64,000 nt of DNA. Origin: an uncultured Nannocystaceae bacterium. GTDB lineage: Bacteria > Myxococcota_A > Polyangia > Nannocystales > Nannocystaceae. Where the stretch lies: NCBI GenBank assembly GCA_964468635.1, contig CAYXVR010000013.1, forward strand, positions 40,389 through 104,388. Direction: 5' to 3'. Below, piece after piece: positions 2,159-39,985 of the stretch (within the stretch, counting starts at the first letter, position 1; each line of letters opens with the position of its first letter). The translations under genes were made by a program, and so were the position numbers. The notes below the pieces were generated by a model, which saw only the letters and a list, made by a program, of their open reading frames with translations, was not told where the DNA came from and made no database searches.

Positions 2159-3097
2159 GTGATCGCGAGGTCGTCGTCGAGTGCTCCGCGCCTGGTTTGC
2201 ATGCTCGCGTTCGCGCTCGTCGGGTGTGCGGACGATGCCGAGCCGCCTCACCTCGTGAGCAAGTCAATCGGCACGGGCGGCGGCGTCGTGAGCTCCCACG
2301 ACGGCGTGCTCACCATCGTCTTCCAGCCCGGATCGTTGGCCGAGACGACGACCATCGAGATCTTCCCGAGCGACGAGCCTCCCCGCGTGTTCGGCCCCGC
2401 CTATCGCGTGCGGCCCAACCTCCCGCTCGAGATCGACGCCGAGGTCACGTACAGCCGCGTGCTGCCGTCGGATCCCGACGACACGGCCATCTCCGTGATC
2501 CGGCTCGAGGACTACGAGAACGAGAACGGCTGGTGGCGGCCGCTGCCGCGCATCCAGCTCGACGAGGTCAACAACTCGGTGCTCGCGCTCGACAGCGAGC
2601 TCTCGCTCTACTACGCGCTGCTCGAGGACGCGAACGGCCCCGGCGACGACGACGGCGAGGACGACGTCGCCGACGACGTCGCGGACGACGGCGTCGAGAC
2701 CACGGACGACGACGGCCCCGGCACCGAGGACGACGGACCCGCCACGGACGACTCCACCGGCGAGCCGCTCCTGTCGCACGCCGCCGACATCCAGCCGCTG
2801 TGGAACGGCAAGTGCCTCGGTCCCGGCTGCCACGAGCAGCCCGCACCGGGCGGCGGCCTCGTGCTCGCCGAAGACGCGTACGCGCATCTCGTCGGCATCT
2901 TCGCGACCGGCGCGAACCGTCCGCTCGTGGACCCGGGCAATCCCGACAACAGCTACGTGCTGAACAAGATCGACGCCAGCTTCGACGATCCGGAAGTGAA
3001 CGGCAGCGGCAGCCGCATGCCGCTCGCGATGGACATGCTGTCCGAAGAAGAGATCGCGCTCGTCACCGCGTGGATCGAGCAGGGCGCGGCGCCCTGA
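2159..3097 (+). CDS. Lipoprotein with a C-terminal planctomycete-cytochrome-C-like (PSCyt1) domain.
   Basis: The product starts MIARSSSSAPRLVCMLAFALVGCADD, a signal peptide plus lipobox. The C-terminal segment IQPLWNGKCLGPGCHEQPAPGGGLVLAEDAYAHLVG...NPDNSYVLNKI...MPLAMDMLSEEEIALVTAWIEQGA matches the PSCyt1 consensus pattern. The N-terminal 120 aa align residue by residue with the N-terminal domain of the 391-1998 product. Confidence 0.55.
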   Translation: MIARSSSSAPRLVCMLAFALVGCADDAEPPHLVSKSIGTGGGVVSSHDGVLTIVFQPGSLAETTTIEIFPSDEPPRVFGPAYRVRPNLPLEIDAEVTYSRVLPSDPDDTAISVIRLEDYENENGWWRPLPRIQLDEVNNSVLALDSELSLYYALLEDANGPGDDDGEDDVADDVADDGVETTDDDGPGTEDDGPATDDSTGEPLLSHAADIQPLWNGKCLGPGCHEQPAPGGGLVLAEDAYAHLVGIFATGANRPLVDPGNPDNSYVLNKIDASFDDPEVNGSGSRMPLAMDMLSEEEIALVTAWIEQGAAP

Positions 3098-6000
3098 TCA
3101 CTTCCGCGCGGCGGCGGTGATCCGCACCGTCTCGCCGCGTGCGAGCGTGAGCTCGACCTGATCGCCCTCGGCGACCGTCAGCAGCGTCTTGCCCAGGTAG
3201 CAGCGGTAGCGCGTCACGTCGTGGCCGCCGATGGCGACGATCTCGTCGCCCTTGCGGAGGCCGACGGCGACCGCGGCGTCGCGGATCTCGCCGACGCGCG
3301 GCGTCTCGTTGCAGGCCAACGGGTACTGCGCGAGGTCGAAGCCGAGATCGCCGGTGGTCGACGCGAACGGGGCGAACTTCGAGCGCGGGATCGCGATCTC
3401 GATCGGCTCGTCCGTCTGCGACTCGGGCACGAGCAGCGCCTCCATCACGGCATCGGGCGACTCGCTCTGGAAGCCGGCCGACATCACGTGGAGCAGGACC
3501 GTCGTGTGCGGCGCATCGGGCACGACGAAGTTGCCGTCCGCATCGCTCAGCTGACCGGGCGCGCGCGACTGCATCGCGCGCTCGGCCGCCATCGCGACGC
3601 GGGCCGACGTCGCGTCGTCCTCGGTGACGGTGGCCCACAGATCGGCGCGCGGCGAGCCGTCCTCGAGATCGACGAAGCGGCCACGGATCGTCCGATTGGG
3701 GAGGAGCTCGAGGTCGACGTTGGTCGTTTCACCCTCGCGGGCGATGGCCGGCGCGCGGCCGCGGCCCTCGCGGGCGATCGCCCGCACTTGATACGCGCCC
3801 GCGTCGAGATCGGCGATCTCGAACGCGCCGCTGCCCATCACGAACGACTCGCGGTGGGCGAGGCGGTTGTCGGCGTACAGCTCGATCCACAGCGCGGTGG
3901 GGCCGGTCGCGGCGCGCACGTGACCGGAGATCGTCGCGGTGGCGGCGAGCTGCAGGCGCGTGTGGTCGCCGACCTTCACGCCGGCCTGCGAGGCCGAGCC
4001 ACCGCCGCGACGCTGCGCGACCACGGTGTACGTGGAGTCCTCCGACACACCGGTGAGCTCGAACTCGCCGTCGGCGTCCGTCAGCGTCGTGCCGCGACCG
4101 CCCGCCGTCGCGCCGCGCAGCTTCGCGCGGCGAGCAGCCTCGGTGGACGTCGGGTCGCTCGCGAGCGCCGACACGAGGGCGTCCCGCAGCGGCGAGCCCT
4201 CCTCGTCGACGACGACGCCGCGGATCGACTTCGCCGCGGGCAGCACGAGCACGACCTCGGCGGGCTCGCGTCCGGCTGCGAGGGTCACGGCCTGCTCGGG
4301 ACTGTGATTGCCGAGCTCGTCCTTCGCCACGATCCGGTACTTGCCGAGCGCGAACGCGTCGAACGTGAACGAGCCGTCGTCGCTCGAGGTGGTCGTCTCC
4401 TGGAACCACCCGCTCGGTTTCCGTGCGCGCACCTCGATGCCGCCGGCCGGCTCGCCCCCGCGCATGACCTTGCCGGTGACGCGCAGGGTGGCCTCGCAGG
4501 TGAGATCGAGCTCGACGTCGCGATCGACGATGGTCGCGCTCGCCACGATCTCGGGCGCGTGCGTGAAGCTGTTGACGGAGTACTGGCCGGGCGACAGGCC
4601 CGCGATCGCGTACGATCCGTCCGCGGCGATCTTCGACCAGCGGTACGAGCCGTCGGGGCCGCTGCTGCGCGTGTAGGCGACGACGTGGCCCGCGAGCGGC
4701 TTGCCCTCGGGGTCGAGCACGTGGCCGCGGATGGACTTGCCGCGCTGGACTCTCCACGTCACCTCGTTCGGCGCGGAGCCACCGACCGTGACGGATTGCG
4801 GGGCCCCGGCGCTGTCGTGCTCGTCGCACGCGACGACGACGGCGTGCTCGCCCGGGGTGAGTGCCTGGAACGCAGCGACGCCGTCGGGCGCGATCGCGGC
4901 GGTGCGCACGACCTCGCCGCTGCGATCCCACAGCATCACCGAGCCCGACGGGCACGGCGTGTCCTCCGGCGCGACGAGGATGTTCGCGCGGAAATCCGAG
5001 GCGGCGACCATCTCGACGACGACGTCGTCCACCGAGTCGCCGAGATCGAGCACGTGACTGCGCGCGGACTCGCCGTGCAAGCCGTCGGCGAAGGCGGCCG
5101 GGCGATAGCGGCCGGCGACGAGCCCTCGCACGGTGAAGCGGCCGTCCTCGTCGGTGAACGCGACCGTGTCCTCGTGGAATGCGGTCTCGGTCCACGCGCG
5201 CAACACCACGCGCGCGCCCGGGACGGGGACTTTCGTGTCGCGCGCGACGACGATGCCGGACAGCGTGGACTCGGGCAGCAGCGCGATCGTGACGGTGGGG
5301 CCGGGCACGACTGCGATCACGTCGGCGTCGCCGTAGCCCTCGGCGCGCACGCCGAGGTCCAGCTTGCCGCGCTCGACCCAAGCGTGGAACGTGCCGTCGC
5401 CCGCCGTGGTGGCGTGGACCGGGACGCCGGCGCCCCAGCTCGGCTGCCCGAGGTGGCCGCCCACGTCGTATTGACGCACGGTGACGCGCGCGCCGTCGAC
5501 CGGGCCGCCGAAGACGTCGCTCACGAGGCCGCGCAGCTCGACGCCACCCTGCGTCAGCACCACGTCGATGCCGCGGCGCTCTTCACCGGCATGCAGCGCG
5601 ACCGAGCTCGTGCCGTGGGCGGTGGCGACGGTGGTCTCGCCGGGGGCGTAGCCCTTCGCGCTCGCGGTGACGCGGTAGCGCGACGGTGGGATCCCGGCGA
5701 TGCGGTACGTGCCGTTCGCTGCGCTCTTCGAGCAGATCGGTGTGGTGCCGCCGTGCTCGGCGATCTCGGGCCACACGCAGACGTCGGCGTCGGGGATCGG
5801 TGTCTCGGTGGCCGTGTGGACGCGCCCCGAGATCGTCGCCGCGCGAGCGTGGGGGCCGAACGCGTCCTCGCCGTCGTCGCTCGAGTCGCGTCGATCGCTG
5901 CGGGCACGCGGGTCGCTCGTCGGCGTCGCGACCTGCTCCGCCGCGCCGACGGTCTTCGCGTCGTCGCGCGCCAGCCACCATGCGACGCCGCCGAGCAGGA

Positions 6001-6649
6001 CGATGGCGGCGACGATGCCGAGGAGCACGCGCATGCTGACGAATGCCGCCGCGATCGCGGTGCCGCTCGTCTCGCTGCTCGGCCAGAAGAGCGCGGCCCA
6101 CCACGGGCGTCGGCCGTAGCGATGGCGCTCGAGCTCGGCCTGCATCTTGAGTCGCGCTCTCGCGACGCGCGTGTATGCGGTGGCGGGCGCGATCTGCCAC
6201 TGCTCGGCGATCTCGGCTCCGCTGAGCCCTTCGAGCTCGGCGAGCACGAACGCGGCGGCTTGCTCGGGGGGCAGCGAGTGCAGGAGGCGATCGAGCACGG
6301 CCTTCGCTTCGGAGCGCGCGGCGTACGACTCGGGATCCGGAAGGTCGCTCGCGACCTCGTCGTCGCGGAGCTCGGGGTGGTCGTGGTGGCGCCGTCGATG
6401 CGCGGCGGCCACGCGCCACGCGATGCCGACGAGCCACGCGCGCAGCGGTCCACGCTGGTGGTCGTAGGACGCGAGCTTGCGGAACGCGATGACGAAGACG
6501 TCGTGCAGCGCGTCCTCGAGCGCCGCATCACGGACCCCGAACCCGCGCAGCTGCTGCCGCACGAGGGCCCGCTGCGCGCGATAGATCCGCGCGAGCTCGA
6601 GCGTGCGCTCGGCATGTTCGCGGGAGGACGGCGGAGGGGCGGGGGTCAT
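3098..6649 (-). CDS. ECF (sigma-70 family) sigma factor fused in one frame to a TM helix, CarboxypepD_reg-like beta-sandwich repeats and a C-terminal PDZ domain.
   Basis: The N-terminal 180 aa carry sigma region 2 (DVFVIAFRKLASYD...AWLVGIAWRVAAAHRRR) and region 4 (LPPEQAAAFVLAELEGLSGAEIAEQWQIAPATAYTRVARARLKMQ). A TM segment follows (VLLGIVAAIVLLGGVAWWLA). After it come many repeats of about 90 aa, Gly/Val-rich, of the 'GxVxDxxGxPLxGAxV...' type. The protein ends with a PDZ-like segment, GDEIVAIGGHDVTRYRCYLGKTLLTVAEGDQVELTLARGETVRI. It is a single 1,183-codon ORF with no internal stop. Confidence 0.65.
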   Translation of the reverse strand: MTPAPPPSSREHAERTLELARIYRAQRALVRQQLRGFGVRDAALEDALHDVFVIAFRKLASYDHQRGPLRAWLVGIAWRVAAAHRRRHHDHPELRDDEVASDLPDPESYAARSEAKAVLDRLLHSLPPEQAAAFVLAELEGLSGAEIAEQWQIAPATAYTRVARARLKMQAELERHRYGRRPWWAALFWPSSETSGTAIAAAFVSMRVLLGIVAAIVLLGGVAWWLARDDAKTVGAAEQVATPTSDPRARSDRRDSSDDGEDAFGPHARAATISGRVHTATETPIPDADVCVWPEIAEHGGTTPICSKSAANGTYRIAGIPPSRYRVTASAKGYAPGETTVATAHGTSSVALHAGEERRGIDVVLTQGGVELRGLVSDVFGGPVDGARVTVRQYDVGGHLGQPSWGAGVPVHATTAGDGTFHAWVERGKLDLGVRAEGYGDADVIAVVPGPTVTIALLPESTLSGIVVARDTKVPVPGARVVLRAWTETAFHEDTVAFTDEDGRFTVRGLVAGRYRPAAFADGLHGESARSHVLDLGDSVDDVVVEMVAASDFRANILVAPEDTPCPSGSVMLWDRSGEVVRTAAIAPDGVAAFQALTPGEHAVVVACDEHDSAGAPQSVTVGGSAPNEVTWRVQRGKSIRGHVLDPEGKPLAGHVVAYTRSSGPDGSYRWSKIAADGSYAIAGLSPGQYSVNSFTHAPEIVASATIVDRDVELDLTCEATLRVTGKVMRGGEPAGGIEVRARKPSGWFQETTTSSDDGSFTFDAFALGKYRIVAKDELGNHSPEQAVTLAAGREPAEVVLVLPAAKSIRGVVVDEEGSPLRDALVSALASDPTSTEAARRAKLRGATAGGRGTTLTDADGEFELTGVSEDSTYTVVAQRRGGGSASQAGVKVGDHTRLQLAATATISGHVRAATGPTALWIELYADNRLAHRESFVMGSGAFEIADLDAGAYQVRAIAREGRGRAPAIAREGETTNVDLELLPNRTIRGRFVDLEDGSPRADLWATVTEDDATSARVAMAAERAMQSRAPGQLSDADGNFVVPDAPHTTVLLHVMSAGFQSESPDAVMEALLVPESQTDEPIEIAIPRSKFAPFASTTGDLGFDLAQYPLACNETPRVGEIRDAAVAVGLRKGDEIVAIGGHDVTRYRCYLGKTLLTVAEGDQVELTLARGETVRITAAARK

Positions 6650-6773
6650 GAAGGGGTGTTGCGACGACGGGCCGGAATCTTCCCCGGTTCGCGCGGGGCG
6701 GAGTGCGCGCGCCGGGAAGGCCCCGGAAGGGGGTGGGACAGCCGGGCGGCCGCCGTGTTCCCCGGCGTCGCCC

Positions 6774-8258
6774 TCACGGATCCGACAGCAGCACCGTGAT
6801 GTCGCCTCCCACCGCGTTGGCGGTGACGACGTCGGGGATCGTGTCGCCGTCGAGGTCGGCGGACTTCACTGCGCTCGCGCCCATGCCCGCTGCGAAGACC
6901 ACGGGGACGTCGAAGCTGTCGCCGTCGAACGGGACGATCGCCACCGAGTCGGCGCCGCGGTGAGAGACCACCGCGTCCTGTACGTCGTCGCCGTCGATGT
7001 CGATCGCGAACACGTCCGACGGTTCCGTCTCCACGCCCGCCGCGACCTGCTGCAGTGCCGCCGCGCCGTTGCCCAAGAGGAAGAACACGCGGTCGCCCGT
7101 GTCGTCCACCAGCGCCACGTCCCACTGCAGGCCCGCGTCGAAGCGCGTCGCCATGCCGCGCGTCGCGTTCGCGCCCGCCATCACGCCCGACACCTGGCAC
7201 GCGCCGCTGAACGCCCCCGTGCCGTCGCCCTGATCGCCGCACCACGCGGTGCCACCGAACACGAACGCGTCCACATCGTCGTTCGACACGCTGTCGTCCG
7301 ACTGCACCACAATCGTGTTCGGTGTGCCCACCGACGTGTCGAACGGGCCCACGTACGCGAACGTGCCGTCGCCGTTTGACACCAGCGTCGCGTACGTCAG
7401 GTCGCCCTGCTCGAGCACCACGATGTCGTCGAGGTCGTCGTTGAGCGCATCCACCGACACCACCGCGAGGTCGACGGGCGCATCGCCCACCGTCTCGAAG
7501 GTCGCCGCCGCGAAGTCGCCCGCGCCGTCCGACAGCAGGATCGCGATGTCGTCGCTCGCGCTGTCCACTACCGCGAGGTCATCGACGCCGTCGCCGTCGA
7601 AGCGCCCCACCGCGAGTGCGACCGGCTGCGTACCGACGATGTACGTGAGCTCGCCCGCGAACGTGCCGTCACCGTTGCCGAAGCGCACGCTCACCGTGTT
7701 GTCGTCCTCGTTCGACACGGCCACGTCCAGCGCGCCGTCGTCGTCGAAGTCGCCGAGCACGAGGTCCGACGGCGCGAGCCCCATCGCGTACGGCACGGGC
7801 GCCTGCAGGCACACCTCGCCGAGGTCCGGATCGCCGTCGCCACACGTGTCGATCGGCCCGGTCTCCGTCGTCGGATCGTCGGTGGTCTCCGTCGTCGGAT
7901 CGGTCGTGATCGTGGGATCCGTCGTGGTCGACTCCTCGTTCGTCGGATCGATCGTCGTCGAGTCCTCCAGCGTCGGGTCCTCGCCGCGCGTCGTCGACTC
8001 GTCCACCGTGATCGGATTCGTCGTGTCCGACTCGCTTCCCGTCGTCGTCGAGTCGGCGTCGTCGCCCGTGCTCGAGTCCTCCGGCGACGTCGCGCTCACG
8101 GTCGCGCTCACCGTCGCCGACGGATCGTCGTCGGCCGACGCATCGGTGCCACCAGGACCGGTGGTGAACGCGCCGTCGGGCAGCTCGTCCCCCGCGGTCT
8201 CGCCTCCACAGGCGGCGAGCGAGAGCACCGCGATCCTCGCGAACGTCCGATAGGTCAT
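6774..8258 (-). CDS. FG-GAP/VCBS-repeat lipoprotein with an integrin-alpha-like beta-propeller.
   Basis: The product starts MTYRTFARIAVLSLAACGG, a signal peptide plus lipobox. A Thr/Asp-rich linker follows. The rest contains repeated FGxGDGTF / DxDGDGxxD(L/V)AV motifs (VRFGNGDGTFAG, GRFDGDGVDDLAVV, DIDGDDVQDAVV, DLDGDTIPDVV). Confidence 0.6.
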   Translation of the reverse strand: MTYRTFARIAVLSLAACGGETAGDELPDGAFTTGPGGTDASADDDPSATVSATVSATSPEDSSTGDDADSTTTGSESDTTNPITVDESTTRGEDPTLEDSTTIDPTNEESTTTDPTITTDPTTETTDDPTTETGPIDTCGDGDPDLGEVCLQAPVPYAMGLAPSDLVLGDFDDDGALDVAVSNEDDNTVSVRFGNGDGTFAGELTYIVGTQPVALAVGRFDGDGVDDLAVVDSASDDIAILLSDGAGDFAAATFETVGDAPVDLAVVSVDALNDDLDDIVVLEQGDLTYATLVSNGDGTFAYVGPFDTSVGTPNTIVVQSDDSVSNDDVDAFVFGGTAWCGDQGDGTGAFSGACQVSGVMAGANATRGMATRFDAGLQWDVALVDDTGDRVFFLLGNGAAALQQVAAGVETEPSDVFAIDIDGDDVQDAVVSHRGADSVAIVPFDGDSFDVPVVFAAGMGASAVKSADLDGDTIPDVVTANAVGGDITVLLSDP

Positions 8259-8273
8259 GGACGAGAGGATAGC

Positions 8274-10530
8274 TCAGCCCGCGATCGTGATGCCGTCGCC
8301 CGAGCACGACCAGTCGTACGCGTTTCCGAGCACGAGGTCCCCGAGGTACTCGCACAGCTCGGCCGTGCTGGTCCCCGGCACGACCAGCGCGGGGTCGTTC
8401 TCGGGGTCCTGATCCGGGCTCGCCACGCCGTCCAGCAGGTACTGCGGCGTGTTGAACAGCATGCCCGCGAACCGGCGCGCGGCGTTCTCGGCCAGCGTGG
8501 CGCCGAACGTCACCGCCTCTTCCTCGAGCTCGACCCCGGTGAGCTGCTCGATGACGGCGATCTCCGCCTCGCTCGTGATCGTCGGCTCGGTGAGCACGCG
8601 ATCCTTCACGGCGACCATCACGTCGAGCATCGTCGCGCCCGGCGTGTCGAGTGCCTCTGCGACGAGCTGCTCGACCCAGTCCTCGTTGCCCGCACACGCC
8701 TCGCCGAGCGGACCGGTGCACTGGCCCCCGAGCCCGGGATCGCCGCCCTCGGCGAGCTGGAACTCCCAGTGGAGCAGCCCGTTGAAGTCGACGCCGTTGA
8801 AGCCGCTCTCGCTGTCGTTCAGGAACACGCCCATGTCGCGCAGGAAGTCGACCTCCGCGGGCCCGGCATCGCACGCGGGGAACGCCCCGGCGCCGCAGTT
8901 GAGCCCCGGCACCTGGATGTCCTGCGGCCCGAAACGCTGCGGGCGCTCCCACCACATCGCGCGCGCCGTCATGTCGAGCAGCACCATCGCGGTGTAGCGA
9001 TGCAGGCCGTCGCCCACGCCGTTGCCGCGAAGCGCGGGATCGGTCGACGTCTTCGTGAACGGGTTGTAGATCGCCGGCAGGTGATACGGCGTGGACGCCG
9101 AGCACGTGTCGGGCGGCGCCTGGTTGAAGTACGGATGCGTGACGATGGTCGTGACGAGCGACCGCACCGAGTAGTGGTTGTCGGCGAACGAGCTCGTGAG
9201 CTCCTGCAGCAGATCGCGCTGCGCCTGGTTGCGCGGGAAGTTGTTCGCGACGACGAGCGGCCAGCCCATCAGCTCGCGCCACGTCTTGTTCGCGAAGTTG
9301 ATCGAGAAGAGGTACGCGAAGCCCACCGCGGGATCCGCCACCGTCTCGTCGGGCTCGAGCACGAGCCCGTCGGACTGCAGGTTCGCGAAGCCCGCCCGCA
9401 TGTTGGCGTCGAGCGCCATCAGCGTCGCACCCTGCGGGTACTCCTCGATCATGTACGCGTCCTCGTCGAGGATGTCGCTGCCCGCACCCGCGGCGAAGTC
9501 GAACACGCCGCAGACCTCGTACATCCCCCACGGACGATCGTCGCCGACCTGCTGGAAGTCGCCCTGACCGCTCGCGAAGCCGGCGCGCCGGAAGATCGCG
9601 TGCGCCATGGGCTCGTTCGCATCGCCGGCATCCGGCCCGTACGTGGCGAGCTCGAAGTGCCCCGGGATCGGCCAGTGGCGATCGGCCTCGGGATCGTCGG
9701 CCACGTCGGTGACCGAGAAGTCGCCGCGATGGCACGGCAGACACTCGGTCTTGCGGCCGAGGTATGCGGACTCGAACGACTGCCCGTACGTCGAGCGCCG
9801 CATCACCTCGAGCTCCTGCGGCGTCACGTTGCCCGCGATGTCCGGCGCGGCCAACCTCGCGAAGAGATCGGCGCGATAGGCCGGCGACACGTCGTCGAGC
9901 AACAGTGCACTGTACACGACGTCGCCCATCCAGAACGGCGTGCCGTAGTCCGCGGTGGGGCCGTTGTCGCGGATGTGCTCCGCGAGCGCGGTGTCGTTCG
10001 ACTCCGCGCCGAAGAGGTCGTAGCACGTCTCGTTGCGGCGATCGCTGTTCACGTTCACGCGCAGCTGCTCGTACAGGTACTGCTTCCACCGATCGAAGTA
10101 GTCGTCGCCGTTGGCGAGCCCGGTGGCCACGATGCGGCGCCCGTCCTCGCCCTGCGCGTCGAGCTGCTCGATCATCTGCACGAGGATGCGGACCTCGCGG
10201 ATGCTCTCCGGTCGACGGCCTTGCACGGCCGGCAGCACGCGCTTCGCCCACGACTCGTTGCCCGCGTCGCACAGCTCGGGGTCCTCGCCGGGCGGCTCCG
10301 GCTCGCCACCGTCGGTACCCGAGGTGAGCACGCCGCTGCCGTCGTCGCTGTCGCTGCCGCTGTCGTCGGGATCGGTCGCGCTCGTGTCGGGATCGGTCGC
10401 GTCGTCGTCGTCGTCGCCGTCGTCCACGCTCGTGAAGCCCGACATCGCGCCGGAGCTCTCGCCGTCCGCGCTCGCGTTGTCGCCCCCGCACGCGGCGAGC
10501 ACCACCAGGATGGAGAGGTTGCGTCTCACG
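8274..10530 (-). CDS. DUF1549/DUF1553-like (PSCyt2/PSD1-type) lipoprotein, partner of the DUF1501 protein.
   Basis: A GTG start (rc 'cac' at 10528-10530) overlaps the DUF1501 stop as GTGA. The N-terminus VRRNLSILVVLAACGG has a lipobox, followed by a poly-Asp linker. There is a CLPCH (CXXCH-like) motif and long conserved segments without low complexity. The ORF-track frame 8274..11777 contains spurious upstream extension. Confidence 0.5.
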
Positions 10531-12097
10531 GCGTCACCCCCAGATACACGTCGCGCACGCGAGTGGCGGCCTGCAGCTCGTCCGTCACCCCGCCGCGCAC
10601 ATCGCCGACGGCGAACGATTGCGACGAGAACGGGTAGATGCCGAGCGACTGCATCACGAGGATGCGGTTCTCGGCCGGCGTGATGTAGTTGGGTGGCTCG
10701 GCGTATCCGCTCGCCTCCTCGATCGCGCCGAAGATGCCGCGCTCCTGGATCGGCCCACCGATCACGATGTTCACGTAGCCCCACGGCCAGTGGTTCGTGC
10801 CACTGCCGCCGACGTCGTCCTGACGGCCGGGCGTGCGCCCGAACTCGGTGTTGATCACGATCATCGTGTGGTCGAGGTTCACCTGGCCGGGACCGTCGCC
10901 GATGATCTCGGCGAGCGCCGCCATCGTGTTCGGGATGTTCTGCGACGACACCTCGGTGTGATCGAAGTGCGTGTCGTGTCCGCCGTTCTGCGCGGGCCGG
11001 ATGCCGGTGTCGATCCACAGCACGTAGCGCGCCTGGTCCTCTTCGCGCGTCAGCAGGCTCGCGGCGAGCCGCGCCTGCATGCGCGACATGTCGAAGTCCT
11101 GCTGCGTGTCGCCGCACGCCGACGGGGCCGAGTCGATCTGCTCGAACAACGACGCCGGCAGGATGTCCTGCAGGTGCGCCGCGTTGCGCCGCGCGAAGTC
11201 GGAGAACTCGTAGTTGCCGCGCTCCGGCGAGCGCGTGGGCGAGCCCAGCCCACCGGCGCGGAAGCGGTTCTCGTACACCTGGCGGTAGTAGGTGATCGCC
11301 GCGTCGAACTCTTCGGGGCTCGTGAGGCCGGGGCGCGCGAGCAGCTCGTTCAGGAGCGAGTTCTGATCCACCGTGACGCCGAGCGGTCGCGACGAGCCGG
11401 GATGGAAACCCACCGACGACGCCGACAGCGAGTTGAACGTGCTGAAGCCCGCGCCGGGATAGAGGACGTACGCGTAGGGGGCCGCGCGCAGGCCTCCGCC
11501 GCCGGGCGCCTCGGGGTTCTCGCTGAAGTAGCGCTGGATCGACGCACCGATGCCGGCCAGGCGCGGCTGTCCGATCCGATCGCCCGTGAACGAGATGGGG
11601 TTCGCCCCCTCGTGCGCGACCTGATCGTGGCGCTGCACCATGATGCGCATGCGCGAGAGGATGTCGGGCCGGGCGCGCAGCGGCATGAGCCACGGACCCA
11701 AGAAGAGCTCGACGCCGTTCGCGTCCTCGATCTCCGACGTCTCCCAGAGATCGGCGGGCGCGTTGCCGTAGCCGCACGTCTCGAAGCGAGCGTCACGCTC
11801 GTACGCGGGCAGGATGGGAGCACCCGGCGCGAACTGGTTCACGTAGCTGTAGTTCGCGACGCCCCACGTCGGCACCGTGTAGAACGTGTCGAACGCACTC
11901 ATGCCGCCGTTGATGTGCAGCTCGAGCACGTTCGTCGCCATGCGCTCGGCGGGGAGGATCGCGTCCATCTTGTCCGCCGGCCACGCGCCCCAACCGGCGG
12001 CGCGGGCGTTCCGCGGATACTTCAGGATGCCGAACACGCCACCGGCGAGCGCCGCACCAGCGGCACCCGTCGTGGTCAGGAATCGTCTGCGTCTCAT
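10526..12097 (-). CDS. DUF1501 family protein, sulfatase-like and Tat-exported.
   Basis: The start is MRRRRFLTTTGAAGAALAGGVFG, a twin-arginine signal. The internal motifs GGHDTHFDH...NHWPWG are typical of DUF1501. It is the conserved partner family of DUF1549/DUF1553 proteins. The ATG is rc 'cat' at 12095-12097. Confidence 0.7.
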   Translation of the reverse strand: MRRRRFLTTTGAAGAALAGGVFGILKYPRNARAAGWGAWPADKMDAILPAERMATNVLELHINGGMSAFDTFYTVPTWGVANYSYVNQFAPGAPILPAYERDARFETCGYGNAPADLWETSEIEDANGVELFLGPWLMPLRARPDILSRMRIMVQRHDQVAHEGANPISFTGDRIGQPRLAGIGASIQRYFSENPEAPGGGGLRAAPYAYVLYPGAGFSTFNSLSASSVGFHPGSSRPLGVTVDQNSLLNELLARPGLTSPEEFDAAITYYRQVYENRFRAGGLGSPTRSPERGNYEFSDFARRNAAHLQDILPASLFEQIDSAPSACGDTQQDFDMSRMQARLAASLLTREEDQARYVLWIDTGIRPAQNGGHDTHFDHTEVSSQNIPNTMAALAEIIGDGPGQVNLDHTMIVINTEFGRTPGRQDDVGGSGTNHWPWGYVNIVIGGPIQERGIFGAIEEASGYAEPPNYITPAENRILVMQSLGIYPFSSQSFAVGDVRGGVTDELQAATRVRDVYLGVTP

Positions 12098-12114
12098 CCG
12101 TCCGTCCTGTCTCG

Positions 12115-13173
12115 TCAGTCGGCGTAGAGGTCGAAGTAACCGCGGCGCTCGACGCGGGTGACGGCCTTCACGAGCCCGTCGGTGAACGGCACGTCGCGCA
12201 GGCGCTCGCGCGCGACGGAGATGGTGATGGGCCCGGGTGCGAGCACGGCGAGTGCATCGGCCGGGATCGAGAGCTCGCCGTCGTCGGTCGCGAGGATCGT
12301 GAACATGCGGCCGAAGTCGTCCCACACGCGCACGACGAAGCGGTCGTCGTCGCTGCCCGCTCCGTCCCACGCGAGATCGATCGCGTCGGACTGCGAGAAG
12401 GGCAGCATGTAGTAGTCGAAGTCGGGCGACGTCACCGTGAACTCGGCCGGCGTGTGCACCTGATCCAACAGCACGTTGTCGTCGAACACCTCGCCGCCGT
12501 AGAGCACGATGTCGTAGTCGGTGTCCGGCATCCAGTCGGCGAGCTCGGGCGCGCAGCCGTCGGGCTGCACCATCGACGCGGTCGCGGCATACACCGGGAA
12601 GATGTCGCCGACCATGCCGACCTCGAGCAGGCACGCGAGCGCTTCGGTGTCCGCGACGCGCAGCTTCATCGCGGTGCCGGCGAGCACCCACTCCTCGATG
12701 TCGCCCCAGTCGAACGGCGCGGGCACGTCGTCGTGCTGCACCGCGTCGAGCTCGCCCGCGGGGATGGGGAAGAGCGTCTGCTGCTCGAACACGGCGACGA
12801 AGTCGTCGACGCCGTCCCAGCCGACGTCGGCGATGCGCCACGCGCCCGCCATCGCGGTGCGGTCCTCGCCGATCACGGGATCGGCGAGATAGCGCGTGAA
12901 CGTCAGGATGCCGCGCATGTCGCCCTCGCCGAGCGTCTCCACGCCGGAGGGATCGCCGTCGTCGGTGGGGCCGTCGTCGTCGTCCGCGGTGGCGTCGGCA
13001 TCCGCGTCCGTGCTGTCGGGTCCGTCGTCGTCGCCGTCGTCGTCGTCGGCCGACGTGAAGCCCGACATCGCGTCGTCGCTCGAGCCCTGCTGCGGATCAC
13101 CGTCGTCACCGCAGGCCACGAACGCGAAACCCAGCAGTACGGCGGCCGACGAAGAGCGAGATCCGATCGTCAT
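12115..13173 (-). CDS. Hypothetical secreted lipoprotein.
   Basis: The product starts MTIGSRSSSAAVLLGFAFVACGDDG, a lipobox. The linker SDDAMSGFTSADDDDGDDD is shared with the 8274-10530 product. The remainder is a globular non-repetitive domain. Confidence 0.5.
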   Translation of the reverse strand: MTIGSRSSSAAVLLGFAFVACGDDGDPQQGSSDDAMSGFTSADDDDGDDDGPDSTDADADATADDDDGPTDDGDPSGVETLGEGDMRGILTFTRYLADPVIGEDRTAMAGAWRIADVGWDGVDDFVAVFEQQTLFPIPAGELDAVQHDDVPAPFDWGDIEEWVLAGTAMKLRVADTEALACLLEVGMVGDIFPVYAATASMVQPDGCAPELADWMPDTDYDIVLYGGEVFDDNVLLDQVHTPAEFTVTSPDFDYYMLPFSQSDAIDLAWDGAGSDDDRFVVRVWDDFGRMFTILATDDGELSIPADALAVLAPGPITISVARERLRDVPFTDGLVKAVTRVERRGYFDLYAD

Positions 13174-13331
13174 GGAAGGCAGAGCAGCGAGGCGTCCTTC
13201 GTCGCTGCCCACCGAGGACAGCATCATCGCCCGCACGCCGCAAGGGGAGTTCTGCCACGCGAGCCCGCGCGCGCCTTCGCGCTGACATTTAAGGAGGTGA
13301 CGATGCGTGACGTCACCGCTCCGCGGCCCGT

Positions 13332-14450
13332 TCAGAGACCGCGGTCGCGCAGCCACGCAACGAGTGCGCTGTAGAAGTCGTCGTGCCGCCAGGGATTGGT
13401 GAGGCCGGGCACGTCGCCCAGGAGCTGACCGACCTCGTCGAGGTGATCGGCGGGCACGCAGCCGAGGAACTCGCCCCAGCGGGCGTCCGCCACGCGGACG
13501 AGCCCGTCGTTCGCGACCGGCGCCAACGGGTTGGCCGTGAGGATGGCGCCGGTGACTTCGAGCCCGCCGTCGAGCGCGTCGACGGCCAGTGCGAAGTCCG
13601 CGACGAACGGCGGCGCGTCGTCGATCGCACACTCGGGCCCGCCGAGGTGGTACGCGGACCGGCCGGCGATCGAGGCGTACGCGACGCCCTCCGCGTCCGG
13701 ATAGGCCTCGTTGAACTCGGCGATCCCGGGCGTGGAGAACTGCGCGAGCGACTCGGAGATCGACGTGTTGCCGTCGATCTCCGACCAGAGCGCGCCTCCG
13801 AGCAGCTGGGCGAGCTCGTCCGCGGCGTCCTGGGCCTGCGGATCGGAGACGATGCCGAGGATGATGTCCGCGATCGGCGTGCCGTGGTGCGGCGTCGCGA
13901 CGGTCGTGACGGACGCGACGAGATCCGGTCGCAGGTTCGCGACGACGCGCGCGTCGAGTCCGCCCTGCGAGTGACCGACGAGGTTCACCTTCGCGTGACC
14001 GGTCTCCGCCAGGATCGCCTCGACGTGCGCGATGAGCTGCTCACCGCGCGCGGTGGAGTCGTCGAACGGGTTCACCGCGGGCGTGAAGACGAGCAGCTCG
14101 CCCTCGCTCGCGAGTCGATCGCGCACGCCGAAGAAGTAGGTGACGAAGTCGATCCCCGCGAACGACTCGAAGCCGAAGAAGCCGTGCGCGAAGACGACGG
14201 GGTAGGGCGGGCCGAGCTTCGCGACGTCGCCGGTGCTCGTCTCGTCGACGCCGACGCTGCCGGCCTCGCTGCTCTCGTCGGTCGACTCGTCGACGCCGCC
14301 GTCGTCGACGGGTGCGGTGGTGGCCGGCGGCGCGCCGCTCGTGTCGGCGGTGCCCGTGCTCGAGCCCGCGGCGTCGGACGCCTCGGTCGCATCGCCCGCG
14401 CACGCGGCGAGCGCGACGAGGAGTACCGCAGGCCGACCGAACCACCGCAT
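13332..14450 (-). CDS. Secreted alpha/beta-hydrolase lipase (triacylglycerol-lipase-like) lipoprotein.
   Basis: The product starts MRWFGRPAVLLVALAACAG, a lipobox. AHGFFGF is an oxyanion-hole-like motif and GHSQGG is the nucleophile elbow GxSxG. The ORF-track frame 13332..16370 carries a long spurious N-terminal extension. Confidence 0.65.
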   Translation of the reverse strand: MRWFGRPAVLLVALAACAGDATEASDAAGSSTGTADTSGAPPATTAPVDDGGVDESTDESSEAGSVGVDETSTGDVAKLGPPYPVVFAHGFFGFESFAGIDFVTYFFGVRDRLASEGELLVFTPAVNPFDDSTARGEQLIAHVEAILAETGHAKVNLVGHSQGGLDARVVANLRPDLVASVTTVATPHHGTPIADIILGIVSDPQAQDAADELAQLLGGALWSEIDGNTSISESLAQFSTPGIAEFNEAYPDAEGVAYASIAGRSAYHLGGPECAIDDAPPFVADFALAVDALDGGLEVTGAILTANPLAPVANDGLVRVADARWGEFLGCVPADHLDEVGQLLGDVPGLTNPWRHDDFYSALVAWLRDRGL

Positions 14451-25281: not shown

Positions 25282-26148
25282 TCAGCCCTCGTCGTCGCAG
25301 GACCACCACAGCCAGGGCTCGCAGACGTCGCCTGGGCGAATGTCGTGCGTGCGGCCGCAGCGAGAGCTGGTGCACTCGTAGTCGTCGCCGCACGGGACCC
25401 CCTCGGCGAGCAACGCTGCGCACGTCGGACCGCCCACCGCGTCGAGATCGCAGAACGCATCCGGGCCGCAGTGCGCTTCGGAGCCCGCACACGGCTCGCC
25501 GATCTGCGGGCGAGGCCGACACGTGCCGAACGTGTCGTCCAGGACGTCGTCCGGCAGATACACGTCGTCGCAGTACGAATCGGGCCCGCACCGCGGCGGG
25601 TGGTCGCCCGCGCGACACTCGATGTCCGTGAACGATTCGCAGGGATCGATGCAGCGCGTGCGCTCCTCGCTGCACTTGTTGCCGAACGGGTCGTCACAGT
25701 CGTAGATCCGCGCCGTGTACGTCTGGCACAAGAGCCCCTGGGCGCAGTCGTCGTGGCCCGGCGGCCACCCCTCGCACGTCTCGCCCAGACCGCGCGTGCC
25801 GTAGAACGTCTTGCACGGGGGCTCGCATCGAGTCGGCGGTTCATGGCACTCGGCCTGACGCTCGAAGCACTCGGGATCCGCCCAGAGGCCGTCGGCGGCC
25901 CCGCTCTCGGCGGCGTTGAGGTAATCGATGTACTGCGACGGCCCGCACCGAGCGACGTCCGGCGCGGTCTGGGGCCGCGCGGGCGGAACACAGCACTGCT
26001 GTTCCGACTCGCAATGCTTGATCGCGAGCGCGACGAGGTCGATGGGCTCGCCATCCTCGGTCTGCAGGTCGCCGACGTTGCGCGATACCGCTTCGCATGC
26101 GGTGGTGAAGGTGAGGAGGAACAGCAGCGTGCTCGTGCGATCGGTCAT
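25282..26148 (-). CDS. Cys-rich secreted lipoprotein.
   Basis: The product starts MTDRTSTLLFLLTFTTACEAVS, a lipobox. It has about 38 Cys in 288 aa, with repeated CxxxC / CxDPC patterns (CEPPCKTF, CIDPCESF, CGDDYEC). It sits in the tail of the artefactual Arg-rich ORF 25282..27390. Confidence 0.55.
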   Translation of the reverse strand: MTDRTSTLLFLLTFTTACEAVSRNVGDLQTEDGEPIDLVALAIKHCESEQQCCVPPARPQTAPDVARCGPSQYIDYLNAAESGAADGLWADPECFERQAECHEPPTRCEPPCKTFYGTRGLGETCEGWPPGHDDCAQGLLCQTYTARIYDCDDPFGNKCSEERTRCIDPCESFTDIECRAGDHPPRCGPDSYCDDVYLPDDVLDDTFGTCRPRPQIGEPCAGSEAHCGPDAFCDLDAVGGPTCAALLAEGVPCGDDYECTSSRCGRTHDIRPGDVCEPWLWWSCDDEG

Positions 26149-26180: not shown

Positions 26181-27368
26181 TCACTCGACGGGGCGCTCGC
26201 ACGGATCGTCGACGCTGACGGCGACGTCGAGCGTGACGAGCACCGCAGCGGCCTTGCGCGCGCGCTCGATGCGGTGGGCATGGCAAGCCGCGTCGCGCTC
26301 GATGAGGAAGCGCTCGCGGTCGAGCGCGCCGCGGCCGAACCGAGCGGCGTAGTCGTCGACGAGCGCGAGGGCCTCGTGGGGTCGCTCCTCGACGAAGCGA
26401 CGCGCACGGCGGAGCAGATCGATCTGCGCCTCGGGATCGTCGCGCACCGTCGGCGGCGGAGCGCGGCGGACGGAGGGCTTCGCGGCGACGGCCGGCCCCG
26501 GCTCGGGCTCCACGATCTCGATCGCGTCGTCCTCCTCCGGCTCGATCGGCGTCGCCCTCGGTGTCGGCGTGTGGGGGCGCGCCGGCTCGCGGGGCGCGGC
26601 GGCGAACGCCGGACGGATCTCCGTCGGCGGCGGTACGGACGAGGGCGCGCTCACGACGACCCCCACCGCGACCGCGACGCCTCCGATCGCGCCCGCGATC
26701 GCGCCGAGCCCCACCGCCTTCGCGGTGTGCCCGAGCTGCACCGCGAGGATCGCCCACACACGCCGAGCGTTCGCGGCGCTCGGGCGCGCTTCGGCCTGCG
26801 CGCGCTGCAGGAACGCCTGCGTCGCCGCATCGTCGGAGGCGATCGCGACGAATCGCTCGCCGAAGCGCTTGCGTGCGAGCCGGAGGCGCGAGTACAGCGT
26901 GTTGATCGGCACGTCGACGTCGAGCGCCACCTCGCTCATCGAGAGCCCGAGCACCTCGACGAGCACGAACACCTCGCGCTGTTCCGCGGGCAGCGAGGCG
27001 AGAAACCCCGCGAGTGCGTGCCAGCCCTGCTTGCGCTCGAGCTCCTCGTCCGGCCGGCGCGGAGCGTCGGGCGCGACGATCTGCGCCGTCACGCGACTTG
27101 CCGACGCAGCCGATCGCCGATGGCTGAACGCGACGTTGCGCGCGACCCCGTCGATCCACGTCGCGAGCGGCACGTCGCTCGCGCGCTGCGCGATCCGGCG
27201 ATGGATCGCGAGGAACACCTCGTGCACGAGATCGTCGAGCTGACCCTCGTCCACGCCCCGCGCTCGCAGCACCCAGCGCACGCGAGCATGGTGGTCGCGG
27301 TAGATCCGTTCGAGGCCGCGGACGGAAGCGGGAGCGGACAGCGGCGGGCCCATCCGTACTCCTTGCAC
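26181..27368 (-). CDS. ECF sigma factor fused to a TM, anti-sigma-like C-terminal domain.
   Basis: Region 2 is LVHEVFLAIHRRIAQ...TWIDGVARNVAFSHRR. Region 4 is LPAEQREVFVLVEVLGLSMSEVALDVDVPINTLYSRLRLARKRF. A TM segment follows (AVGLGAIAGAIGGVAVAVGVVV), then a Pro/Ala-rich linker and a 100-aa C-terminal domain. The start may be the internal Met at 27353. Confidence 0.65.
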   Translation of the reverse strand: MQGVRMGPPLSAPASVRGLERIYRDHHARVRWVLRARGVDEGQLDDLVHEVFLAIHRRIAQRASDVPLATWIDGVARNVAFSHRRSAASASRVTAQIVAPDAPRRPDEELERKQGWHALAGFLASLPAEQREVFVLVEVLGLSMSEVALDVDVPINTLYSRLRLARKRFGERFVAIASDDAATQAFLQRAQAEARPSAANARRVWAILAVQLGHTAKAVGLGAIAGAIGGVAVAVGVVVSAPSSVPPPTEIRPAFAAAPREPARPHTPTPRATPIEPEEDDAIEIVEPEPGPAVAAKPSVRRAPPPTVRDDPEAQIDLLRRARRFVEERPHEALALVDDYAARFGRGALDRERFLIERDAACHAHRIERARKAAAVLVTLDVAVSVDDPCERPVE

Positions 27369-38474: not shown

Positions 38475-38578
38475 TCCGAGTCGTCAGAAACCTGCAGCGG
38501 ATTCGGCGCCGGAGGATAGTGACCGTGAATCGCCGACTTATACCGCCGCTACCGGAATGGGCGTCTTCCCGGAGGAGT

Positions 38579-39985
38579 ATGAGTTTCCGTAGCGCGATCC
38601 CATTTTTGGCGATAGCGACTACATGTTCTCCAGGTGGCTCCTCCGACGAAGGCGGCTCAACGGGCGGTTCCTCCACATCCACGGGAGCGGGATCGACGAG
38701 CTCGATTGCCGACGGTGACTCGACTGGGGCATCGAGTGGCGATGTTTCGACCTCCAGTGGAAGCGTCAATGCAATTTGCGGCAACAGCATTGTAGAGAGC
38801 GGCGAACACTGTGACGGCGCTGCAATCTCGGGACATGAGTGTCCCAAGGACTGCAGATTTCCGGAGATGTTTGAGCTGTGGGAACAGCGCATTGTGACGA
38901 CCGGTTCTGATCGAGTCGCGTCCATCGACTCGTCAGAAATGGGAGCCATAGCCATTGCGGGTGACACGTCCGGGACGGGTGTCGAGGGGCTCGACGTTCT
39001 GGCTGCGTCACTGACTACTGACGGCGACCTCCTATTTGTTCGAGCTCATGCAGCGCAGCCCGCAAGTAATGATCAGGCGTTTGTTGCGACCATGGTCGGT
39101 GGGGATGTCATTGTTGCGGGTGTTTCTGCGCGCCGTATTTGGGCGGCTAGATTCGATATGGCCGGGGAGTTGCAGTGGGATTACCTGCTCGAGGGTGACA
39201 ACAAATCCAGTACGTATATCGCAACAGGAAGCACATGGCAAACTAAGGGGTCACTTCTTCTTCTGGCGAGTGGTGACTTGTCGGAACCGCTGCCCGGATA
39301 CATGATATCTCTTGATCCCACGACTGGTCGCTCGAAAGAGGTGCGACGCCTTGCCGGGCCCGTGAATCGCGACGACAATGGCGTGCTGTGGGGTCTCCGC
39401 GGCTTTGGGCGAGCCGACGGAAGCTTGCTCGTCGCAGCGGTCGTGGATGTCAATGGTGAGTCCGACGGTTGGGTGGACAGCCAGTCGGTCGCGGAAAAGT
39501 CAATGTGGTCGGGTAGCTGGGATGCGCCCGAGCGAGGCTCCTCCGATCGACTGGCTGATGTGCATGGGAATTCCCAAGGCGACGTCGTAATACTTACGGA
39601 ATGGCCCACCGGTGACGACGAGGGTTACGATATCATGCTCCGAGTATATAGTGCGGACGGGCAGGAGCGTTGGACGGCAATATATTCCGGTCCTGACGGT
39701 GTTAATGATTTTCCAGGCGGGGTAGCGATCGACGATTCCGGATCGGTGTTCTTCTGCGGACGTTCAGAAGTTGCACCTGATGATATAGACATCATCACCG
39801 GAAAAGTGTCGGGCGAGGGCGAAATTGTCTGGGTGGACACGTGGTCCGGTGATCGAAGCGAGAAGTTCAGTTGGGATATTGGAGCCGACGTCGTGCTGGA
39901 GGAACGGGGGTTCTTGGTAGTAGCGGGTTATACATATGGGACTGCGAACGACTACGATATCGTGGTGCGATCGATTGTTCCATAG
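38579..39985 (+). CDS. Secreted lipoprotein with a 'Myxococcus cysteine-rich repeat' and a beta-propeller-like body, encoded in a low-G+C island.
   Basis: The start is MSFRSAIPFLAIATTCSPGG (lipobox), preceded by GGAGGAG. CGNSIVESGEHCDGAAISGHECPKDC fits the myxococcal Cys-rich repeat pattern. A/T-rich codons are used throughout. The gene ends in three consecutive stops, TAG TGA TAA. Confidence 0.55.
   Translation: MSFRSAIPFLAIATTCSPGGSSDEGGSTGGSSTSTGAGSTSSIADGDSTGASSGDVSTSSGSVNAICGNSIVESGEHCDGAAISGHECPKDCRFPEMFELWEQRIVTTGSDRVASIDSSEMGAIAIAGDTSGTGVEGLDVLAASLTTDGDLLFVRAHAAQPASNDQAFVATMVGGDVIVAGVSARRIWAARFDMAGELQWDYLLEGDNKSSTYIATGSTWQTKGSLLLLASGDLSEPLPGYMISLDPTTGRSKEVRRLAGPVNRDDNGVLWGLRGFGRADGSLLVAAVVDVNGESDGWVDSQSVAEKSMWSGSWDAPERGSSDRLADVHGNSQGDVVILTEWPTGDDEGYDIMLRVYSADGQERWTAIYSGPDGVNDFPGGVAIDDSGSVFFCGRSEVAPDDIDIITGKVSGEGEIVWVDTWSGDRSEKFSWDIGADVVLEERGFLVVAGYTYGTANDYDIVVRSIVP

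Follow-up and report, generated by a model that had tools for sequence, protein, structure and literature searches.

Sigma factors of the extracytoplasmic function (ECF) type form one of the chief signalling systems of bacteria, and nearly all of those studied are under the control of a separate anti-sigma protein. The stretch of DNA analysed here (the window; 64,000 nucleotides of contig CAYXVR010000013.1, from an uncultured Nannocystaceae bacterium) contains a minus-strand gene in which an ECF sigma factor is read in one frame with a transmembrane (TM) helix, a long stalk of CarboxypepD_reg domains and a C-terminal PDZ domain. This locus raises the question of whether such a fusion is a genuine gene and, if so, how a sigma factor built into a membrane protein could be controlled. 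Judged by sequence comparison, the sigma-TM-stalk fusion is a real, conserved myxobacterial gene under selection, and its product is probably a one-protein envelope sensor that is activated by being cut out of the membrane.

The reading frame and its conservation

The list of open reading frames (ORFs) and their translations gives one unbroken ORF of 1183 amino acids (aa) for the sigma-fusion gene at 3098..6649 (minus strand), precisely the single 1,183-codon frame reported in the initial annotation of the window. It begins with an ATG at 6647..6649, from which the N-termini of its orthologs align, and its stop codon (3098..3100) abuts the end of a convergent plus-strand gene at 2159..3097. 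The first 16 kb of the window have a G+C content of 69-74%, and because the window is so rich in G+C, long ORFs are expected by chance on both strands. The G+C content of the three codon positions of 3098..6649 (0.73/0.54/0.93) is the signature of a real gene within this window, and the phase of high third-position G+C (GC3) stays constant between approximately 3100 and 6600, a stretch that takes in the sigma-to-TM junction at 6090-6130. An antisense shadow ORF of 1192 aa (3221..6799, plus strand) spans the whole gene with codon-position values of 0.92/0.55/0.73; these patterns indicate that the plus-strand frame is noncoding and the minus-strand frame coding.

A database search recovered at least 12 full-length relatives of 1177-1254 aa (44-86% identity) and one identical protein. 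The orthologs, most of them Nannocystaceae or other Myxococcota, were drawn from independent NCBI, JGI, ENA and Logan assemblies, and all full-length relatives carry the sigma domains. In an alignment of 13 sequences (12 full-length and P0011, which has a frameshifted C-terminus), the junction motif G179-R-R-x-W-W-A185 and the TM helix were conserved in all 12 full-length orthologs, with invariant columns at G179, R181, W183, W184, A185, A201, A202, F203, V204, R207, W224 and W225. The junction thus ranks among the best-conserved parts of the alignment, in which no conserved internal Met capable of starting a separate membrane protein was found. Conservation and constraint both peak in the sigma module: sequence identity with the window protein is 0.82 for sigma2 and, the highest value, 0.89 for sigma4, followed by 0.74 for the TM helix, 0.73 for the juxtamembrane spacer, 0.64 for the repeat array, 0.59 for the PDZ domain and, the lowest value, 0.36 for the periplasmic linker (residues 228-268). 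Pairwise ratios of nonsynonymous to synonymous substitution rates (dN/dS), whose absolute values are inflated by GC3 constraint on synonymous sites, were 0.14-0.22 for the sigma part (residues 15-175), 0.29-0.40 for the junction plus TM helix, 0.53-0.76 for the linker, 0.23-0.49 for the array and 0.25-0.80 for the PDZ domain.

A word-indexed homolog search with residues 1-230 missed known orthologs, and the same query was instead run exhaustively with phmmer against 1.84 billion representatives. The closest sigma relatives were nearly all fusions of approximately 1130-1192 aa or fragments of such fusions, and the architecture recurred in about ten further clusters formed at 50% identity. Among these more distant relatives (P0007, P0013, P0058, P0060, P0062, P0063, P0065, P0067, P0105 and P0200; 32-82% identity), the eight proteins scanned all combined a sigma factor with five to nine CarboxypepD_reg stretches; six of the eight also had a PDZ match, which exceeded the Pfam cut-off in four (P0058, P0060, P0062 and P0065). 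Named relatives are Nannocystaceae, Myxococcales or 'Deltaproteobacteria' metagenome-assembled genomes, the closest of them belonging to the Nannocystaceae.

These results bear directly on the possibility that a sequencing or assembly error masks a stop or frameshift that separates a normal sigma gene from a membrane-protein gene downstream of it. In principle high-GC DNA yields long spurious ORFs, yet no evidence supporting an artefact was found. The GC3 phase is even across the junction, orthologs from four data sources share the invariant junction residues, the dN/dS of the junction plus TM helix is low relative to that of the linker, the same architecture appears again in distant clusters, and a separate membrane protein would have no conserved Met from which to start. 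The fusion of sigma factor and TM helix described in the initial annotation is therefore genuine, with no hidden frameshift or stop at 6090-6130, and the artefact explanation, refuted by the GC3 phase, the ortholog alignment and dN/dS, is vanishingly improbable.

Sigma factor, tether and stalk

The N-terminal module is, by its domain content, a bona fide and complete sigma2-sigma4 pair. Region 2 occupies residues 9-89 (6383..6625, minus strand), with Pfam Sigma70_r2 at residues 23-88 (31.9 bits against a cut-off of 24), and region 4 occupies residues 106-178 (6116..6334, minus strand), with Sigma70_r4_2 at residues 119-169 (50.3 bits against a cut-off of 25.7). The sigma2-sigma4 linker (residues 90-105; 6335..6382, minus strand) runs into sigma4 through a conserved motif, SDLPDPE-YAARSEA (residues 101-115), with an ortholog identity of 0.83 over residues 96-118. 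In NCBIfam, the N-terminus belongs to the generic sigma70-ECF superfamily (TIGR02937; 57.4 bits against a cut-off of 42.9) with no equivalog match, and the sigma part aligns to the PDB structures of Mycobacterium tuberculosis SigE and of CnrH, SigH and RpoE. With regions 2 and 4 only, both above curated thresholds, the module is an ECF (group 4) sigma-70 factor.

An AlphaFold2 model built from a 28-sequence alignment (mean predicted local distance difference test score, pLDDT, of 79.6; predicted template modelling score of 0.65) places, in order, a confident sigma2 domain (helices at residues 9-89, pLDDT approximately 90) and a confident sigma4 domain (residues 106-178), a helix at residues 198-229, disorder at residues 228-261, nine all-beta domains and a C-terminal alpha/beta domain; confidence is low at residues 91-105, which lie in the sigma2-sigma4 linker, and at residues 180-182 and 187-203. 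The cytoplasmic juxtamembrane spacer (residues 179-207; 6029..6115, minus strand) contains the invariant GRRxWWA and AAFVxxR motifs and is modelled with pLDDT below 50. It is followed by the TM core (residues 208-227, VLLGIVAAIVLLGGVAWWLA; 5969..6028, minus strand), which carries a GG pair and lies within the predicted helix. Residues 208-226 (Kyte-Doolittle 2.48) form the only hydrophobic segment in the protein, in agreement with the single TM helix proposed in the initial annotation. The helix has an Arg-rich flank on its N-terminal side and an acidic flank on its C-terminal side, and all seven cysteines lie beyond residue 290. By the positive-inside rule and this distribution of cysteines, the protein fits the N-in/C-out topology of a type II membrane protein, with an oxidising extracytoplasmic side.

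Neither Pfam nor the model contains an anti-sigma domain in the approximately 20-30 residues between sigma4 and the membrane core. Because this spacer is so short and Cys-free, the first Cys of the whole protein being residue 291, neither a class I nor a zinc-binding anti-sigma domain can be present, and what had been annotated as an attached anti-sigma-like part reduces to these few residues. Without an anti-sigma domain, tethering itself would have to be the inhibitory principle. On the other side of the membrane, the charged periplasmic linker (residues 228-268; 5846..5968, minus strand) is disordered, with pLDDT of 29-38 over residues 228-261, and is a candidate region for site-1 cleavage.

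Beyond the linker stand nine CarboxypepD_reg/transthyretin-like beta-sandwich domains (residues 269-1090; 3380..5845, minus strand), modelled as all-beta with pLDDT of 80-94. The Pfam match to CarboxypepD_reg (PF13620; 217.7 bits, 1.8e-65, nine stretches) identifies a tandem repeat, as annotated, although the array extends over approximately 820 aa and not 900. In the PDB, Foldseek with the whole model matched nothing more specific than generic beta-sandwich proteins of tandem build, such as pilins, adhesin stalks and macroglobulins. Two pairs of cysteines within array domains, 291/306 and 566/608, are invariant in all 13 aligned sequences, and the pair 1113/1150 within the PDZ domain is invariant in the 12 full-length orthologs, the exception being the frameshifted P0011.

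The PDZ domain occupies residues ~1098-1180 (3110..3358, minus strand; pLDDT 76-92). In the window protein alone, PDZ_2 at residues 1124-1175 scores 21.9 bits, below the Pfam cut-off of 27. A family profile of the last 135 residues of 16 members matches solved PDZ domains (syntenin at 6e-12, DegP, the RseP PDZ domain and AlgW), and 15 of the 16 members match Pfam PDZ_2, which bears out the C-terminal PDZ domain of the initial annotation; a carboxylate-binding loop, GDLGF, lies at residues 1100-1104 with G1103 invariant. No peptidase family, including the S1C or S41 domains that may be attached to a PDZ domain, was found among Pfam hits up to E=1. The suggestion that site-1-protease-like sensing is built into the polypeptide thus had its basis in the PDZ domain alone, and without a peptidase domain any cleavage must occur in trans.

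Promoter, proteolytic release and competing explanations

A conserved block before the start codon emerged when the upstream DNA of four loci was aligned. In the window it reads GGGAAG-N16-GCAAC (6658..6684, minus strand) and ends 8 nt upstream of the ATG, as a putative self (ECF-type) promoter. The window and loci L001, L003, L004, L005, L013 and L014 share the form GGGAAG-N16/17-(G/A)CAA(C/T), with the start codon lying 7-10 nt further on. The motif occurs once in the 64-kb window (0.03 expected) and once, at the same position, in each ortholog locus with upstream DNA. It is also found as GGGAAG-N17-GCAAT before the distant relatives P0058 (L021) and P0063 (L025), with variants before P0062 (L023; GGGATG-N17-GCAAT) and P0065 (L024; GGGAAG-N17-GCACG); it is therefore kept, with minor variants in two, in all examined relatives with at least 38% sigma identity, and is absent upstream of the remote fusion P0022. 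The annotated start of P0062 (L023, ~550-610) is probably 16 codons too far downstream, as an in-frame ATG stands 7 nt past the conserved GCAAT box, as in other family members. With its two boxes at this spacing, the element has the layout of an ECF promoter, and a -10-like box only 7-10 nt ahead of the start codon would make the transcript leaderless or nearly so. On this sequence pattern, the element may be a self-promoter recognised by the family's own sigma factor. A scan of 2900-7000 for sigma-70 promoters and intrinsic terminators found none. When the motif was relaxed to one mismatch, the window yielded matches at 38758 and 51315, where about three to four would be expected by chance.

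The best-studied precedent for the arrangement is IutY of Pseudomonas putida, a hybrid of sigma factor, TM helix and periplasmic domain that is released by the proteases Prc and RseP (PMC5411451; review PMC8999054). IutY is inactive until it is cut, and the released sigma fragment is approximately 23 kDa (PMC5411451, PMC8999054); truncations that retain 50 or fewer periplasmic residues are Prc-independent substrates of RseP (PMC5411451). Like IutY (ECF243), the window protein has a cytosolic ECF sigma factor at its N-terminus that leads straight into one TM helix, with a periplasmic domain beyond, all in one polypeptide. However, IutY, at only 374 aa, carries a periplasmic domain of the FecR type, is signalled by the TonB-dependent transducer IutA and has a sigma factor of the FecI-like group, whereas the window protein has a periplasmic part of approximately 950 aa, a sigma factor of another lineage and a host of another phylum. 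The features of ECF243 are missing, with no Pfam match to FecR or DUF4880 in the window protein and no transducer gene among its neighbours. By analogy, the window protein would work most like IutY, while its features place it outside the IutY family.

The need for proteolytic release proposed in the initial annotation consequently fits the best-supported model, with IutY as its precedent (PMC5411451). It is fairly probable that the protein is an IutY-like hybrid that would be silenced by tethering, released by proteolysis in trans and then able to fire its own promoter. The steps known for IutY, together with the behaviour of a truncation of Myxococcus xanthus DdvA that lacks the periplasmic domain and undergoes RseP-dependent degradation or intramembrane proteolysis (PMC11506125), serve as models for the order of events. 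The full-length protein would be inactive while its sigma factor is held at the membrane. The stalk and PDZ domain would read an envelope signal, for example C-terminal peptides, and the signal would open the disordered linker to attack in trans by a site-1 protease of the periplasm. What remains of the protein, a shortened stub, could then become the substrate of an RseP-type site-2 protease and be cut in the GG-containing TM helix, and the freed sigma fragment of approximately 22-24 kDa would bind core RNA polymerase. Released sigma would transcribe its own, probably leaderless, gene plus a regulon, and self-transcription would replenish the consumed sensor.

It is also conceivable that the sigma factor works while anchored and uncleaved, like ToxR or CadC, by recruiting core RNA polymerase to membrane-proximal DNA, with the stalk and PDZ domain modulating it allosterically or by clustering. 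No anti-sigma domain is present to block the core-binding surfaces, the spacer (GRRxWWA...AAFVxxR) is invariant as expected for a specific role, and no protease partner is conserved nearby. However, a spacer of approximately 20-30 residues would have to hold a holoenzyme of approximately 400 kDa, plus DNA, against the membrane, and a disordered, fast-evolving linker and a GG pair in the TM helix fit a proteolysis substrate. Moreover, IutY, the one tested protein of the same topology, is inactive until cleaved and constitutive when truncated (PMC5411451). Activity without cleavage is considered unlikely.

A second alternative arises from relatives that lack a sigma factor. Such proteins (P0014, P0015, P0016, P0018 and P0023; 945-1033 aa) reach into the cytoplasm with no more than 10-25 residues, which lead into a similar TM helix (..GGxxWW..), an array of the same kind and a PDZ domain. 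Because they carry the TM helix, array and PDZ domain, the extracytoplasmic module exists on its own, and the comparison indicates that in the sigma-fusion family a sigma factor has been grafted onto the cytoplasmic end of the stalk module. The protein could thus be mainly a structural or adhesive envelope stalk, with a sigma factor that gauges its own assembly or turnover, or is simply degraded, and no dedicated external signal. In addition to the sigma-less relatives themselves, this reading is favoured by the fold matches to pilin, adhesin and macroglobulin arrays, by the fact that only self-regulation is detectable, and by P0014, the final gene of an operon of six whose first gene encodes an unrelated ECF sigma factor. 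On the other hand, the strongest conservation and constraint fall on the sigma module, and total length and the PDZ domain are conserved together with it. A predominantly structural role seems rather improbable, and it would be a variant of the release model, since a turnover-monitoring sigma factor would still need release.

The P0014 operon itself (L010, 2154-9033, plus strand) is tightly packed, and its heading sigma gene is followed by a gene for a 168-aa protein with one hydrophobic segment, possibly an anti-sigma factor. An origin of the fusion by fission or fusion involving this sigma factor was rejected because the two share only 29% identity and are different ECF sigma factors.

Several points weigh against the proposal of a released, self-regulating sensor. 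Cleavage, release and activity of the family members are extrapolated from analogous systems. No protease gene is conserved beside the family, the neighbours differing in every locus. The sigma-less relatives show that the stalk module has a function of its own, which need not be signalling. There is no second strict copy of the motif in the window or in the ortholog loci, and with no further copy found, a regulon and sigma-specific recognition remain inferences. The -35-like GGGAAG box lacks the AAC core that is common in the -35 elements of ECF promoters. Finally, because the extreme GC3 bias compresses dS, only the relative ranking of dN/dS was used.

A more ambitious version of the release model treats the protein as a self-contained periplasm-spanning sensor in which the stalk and PDZ domain gate release, tethering is the sole inhibition and a leaderless self-promoter closes the loop. 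Nine rigid domains of near-constant total length would bring the PDZ domain close to the cell wall or outer membrane, where it could read exposed C-terminal peptides, such as those of outer-membrane proteins that are not assembled; a bound ligand would permit the juxtamembrane linker to be cleaved, and a pathway of the sigma-E/RseA/DegS type would in effect be collapsed into one polypeptide. Taken as a whole, this combination is doubtful.

Comparison with other tethered and envelope-responsive sigma systems

The window protein belongs to the class of ECF sigma factors with a TM-containing C-terminal extension, sigma factor and extension lying in one conserved reading frame. In the part of the classification of Casas-Pastor et al. 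(2021) that was compared, 19 ECF groups have C-terminal extensions (PMC7826278). These include ECF220 of the Polyangiaceae, with about one TM helix and an extension of 0-400 aa without Pfam domains (PMC7826278; 10.1101/2019.12.11.873521), ECF57 of the Planctomycetes with about two TM helices, ECF263 with five to seven, and the actinobacterial ECF48, ECF52 and ECF53 with a zinc finger plus TM helix (PMC7826278). According to the available description of ECF220, the window protein resembles this group in being myxobacterial, in having a C-terminal TM extension and in lacking a separate anti-sigma factor. It is set apart by an extension of approximately 1000 aa with CarboxypepD_reg and PDZ domains, by a closest named relative in the Nannocystaceae, and by having no conserved context, whereas the described context of ECF220 includes TM proteins at positions +1/-1, an AAA ATPase and a TPR protein.

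Proteins of ECF52, ECF53 and ECF48 (e.g. SCO4117; PMC5826349, PMC8999054) likewise have a TM extension and an extracytoplasmic sensor-like part, and proteolytic activation has been proposed for them. They carry a domain resembling a zinc-binding anti-sigma domain (ZAS-like) between sigma factor and TM helix, and the window protein does not; the HxxxCxxC signature of ECF52/53/48 and ECF270s2 is missing from its residues 1-290, which contain no Cys. The ECF01-Gob type, cited in the initial annotation as a comparable case, is planctomycetal and has an extension consisting of a TM helix and a WD40/beta-propeller. With no WD40 match in Pfam and an origin in Myxococcota, the window protein is not a member of that type, nor, for the same two reasons, of ECF57 (WD40/beta-propeller, Planctomycetes). 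CarboxypepD_reg domains are mentioned for ECF54, ECF57 and ECF255, in the descriptions compared, only as separate neighbouring proteins (PMC7826278), and those descriptions and their supplement include no group with a CarboxypepD_reg array or a PDZ domain within the extension (PMC7826278). The portion of the published ECF sequence table covered by a motif search gave no match, and no paper in the literature searched joins an ECF sigma factor with CarboxypepD_reg.

The RpoE-RseA-DegS-RseP pathway of Escherichia coli also holds an ECF sigma factor at the inner membrane and uses a PDZ domain as a periplasmic sensor of C-terminal peptides, and its principle of release, sequential site-1 and site-2 proteolysis, is the one proposed for the window protein. 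However, that pathway is distributed over four proteins, in which a cytoplasmic anti-sigma domain of RseA binds sigma-E and the PDZ domain is part of the protease DegS, whereas the window sigma factor is covalently tethered and its PDZ domain has no attached protease. Very large or periplasm-crossing extracytoplasmic parts are further known from two anti-sigma systems, Dma3 of Bacteroides thetaiotaomicron, a predicted sigma-fused, periplasm-crossing regulator (PMC10927553), and DdvA-DdvS. Neither has a CarboxypepD_reg stalk or a PDZ domain, the Dma proteins having instead a disordered periplasm-crossing region and an outer-membrane beta-barrel end (PMC10927553).

Genomic context and significance

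The sigma-fusion gene is the last of a minus-strand run that also includes an FG-GAP_3 gene (6774-8258), a weak DUF1553/PSD1 gene and a DUF1501 gene. The run exists as annotated, but it is not a conserved context: tblastn at eight related loci found none of the window neighbours, including the convergent gene, and the genes called around relatives differ from locus to locus. An operon link with the FG-GAP/DUF1553/DUF1501 genes was consequently rejected, and since the neighbours are shared with no ortholog locus, the unit is the gene alone. A small downstream ORF of 96 aa at L001 and L003, considered as a conserved companion, was also rejected because the two ORFs show no relationship, either with one another or with the window. 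The convergent gene (312 aa, GC3 0.93) has no Pfam match, and its end at 3097 leaves no intergenic space before the fusion stop and no terminator-like hairpin. Further upstream, the minus-strand ORFs 8274..11777, 10526..12841 and 12115..13632 overlap only through run-on upstream of their true starts; GC3 phase switches at approximately 10500, 12000 and 13200 resolve 8274-13632 into the DUF1553-like gene, the DUF1501 gene and one gene without assignment.

A second sigma-TM fusion lies elsewhere in the window, in a 395-aa ORF at 26181-27368 (minus strand) with Sigma70_r2 at residues 22-88, Sigma70_r4_2 at residues 122-168 and a uniform GC3 phase. Its sigma factor is 37% identical to that of the main fusion, and beyond it are a hydrophobic stretch (~205-240), a Pro-rich linker and a helical C-terminus of approximately 110 aa without a Pfam match; the likely start is an ATG near 27353 after AAGGAG, with no GGGAAG-N16-GCAAY upstream. 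On the more ambitious reading of the main fusion, this shorter protein may point to a whole paralogous family of one-component sigma sensors in the lineage. The next tier of sigma relatives consists of proteins of approximately 500 aa (P0066, P0068, P0078, P0082, P0099 and P0102) that combine an ECF sigma factor with a C-terminal extension of approximately 330 aa without a Pfam domain, the query match extending past sigma4 into a hydrophobic region, to query residues 200-220. From these comparisons, direct TM tethering with varied outer domains would appear to be a recurring arrangement in this sigma clade. Two lower-GC ORFs, 38471-39985 (plus strand) and 25282-25950 (minus strand), look Cys-rich and secreted, with repeated C-x-x-C stretches; the latter has no Pfam match, and the former encloses the relaxed promoter match at 38758, which is probably due to chance.

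The sigma-fusion proteins constitute a conserved myxobacterial family that is apparently undescribed in the literature searched, and the ECF group descriptions compared do not cover such an architecture in Myxococcota. The principle, a TM-tethered ECF sigma factor, is a known one; it is the architecture that is new. Few membrane-anchored sigma fusions have been examined, and IutY alone in mechanistic detail. The present family adds one that is well conserved and easily recognised, with no anti-sigma domain, a very large stalk whose length is fixed, a PDZ domain at its tip and a clear candidate self-promoter. It offers a simple test of whether membrane tethering alone silences a sigma factor, and of how a PDZ domain without a protease could gate intramembrane proteolysis. 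The interest would be greater if the stalk and PDZ domain do form a periplasm-spanning sensor that gates sigma release without an anti-sigma domain.

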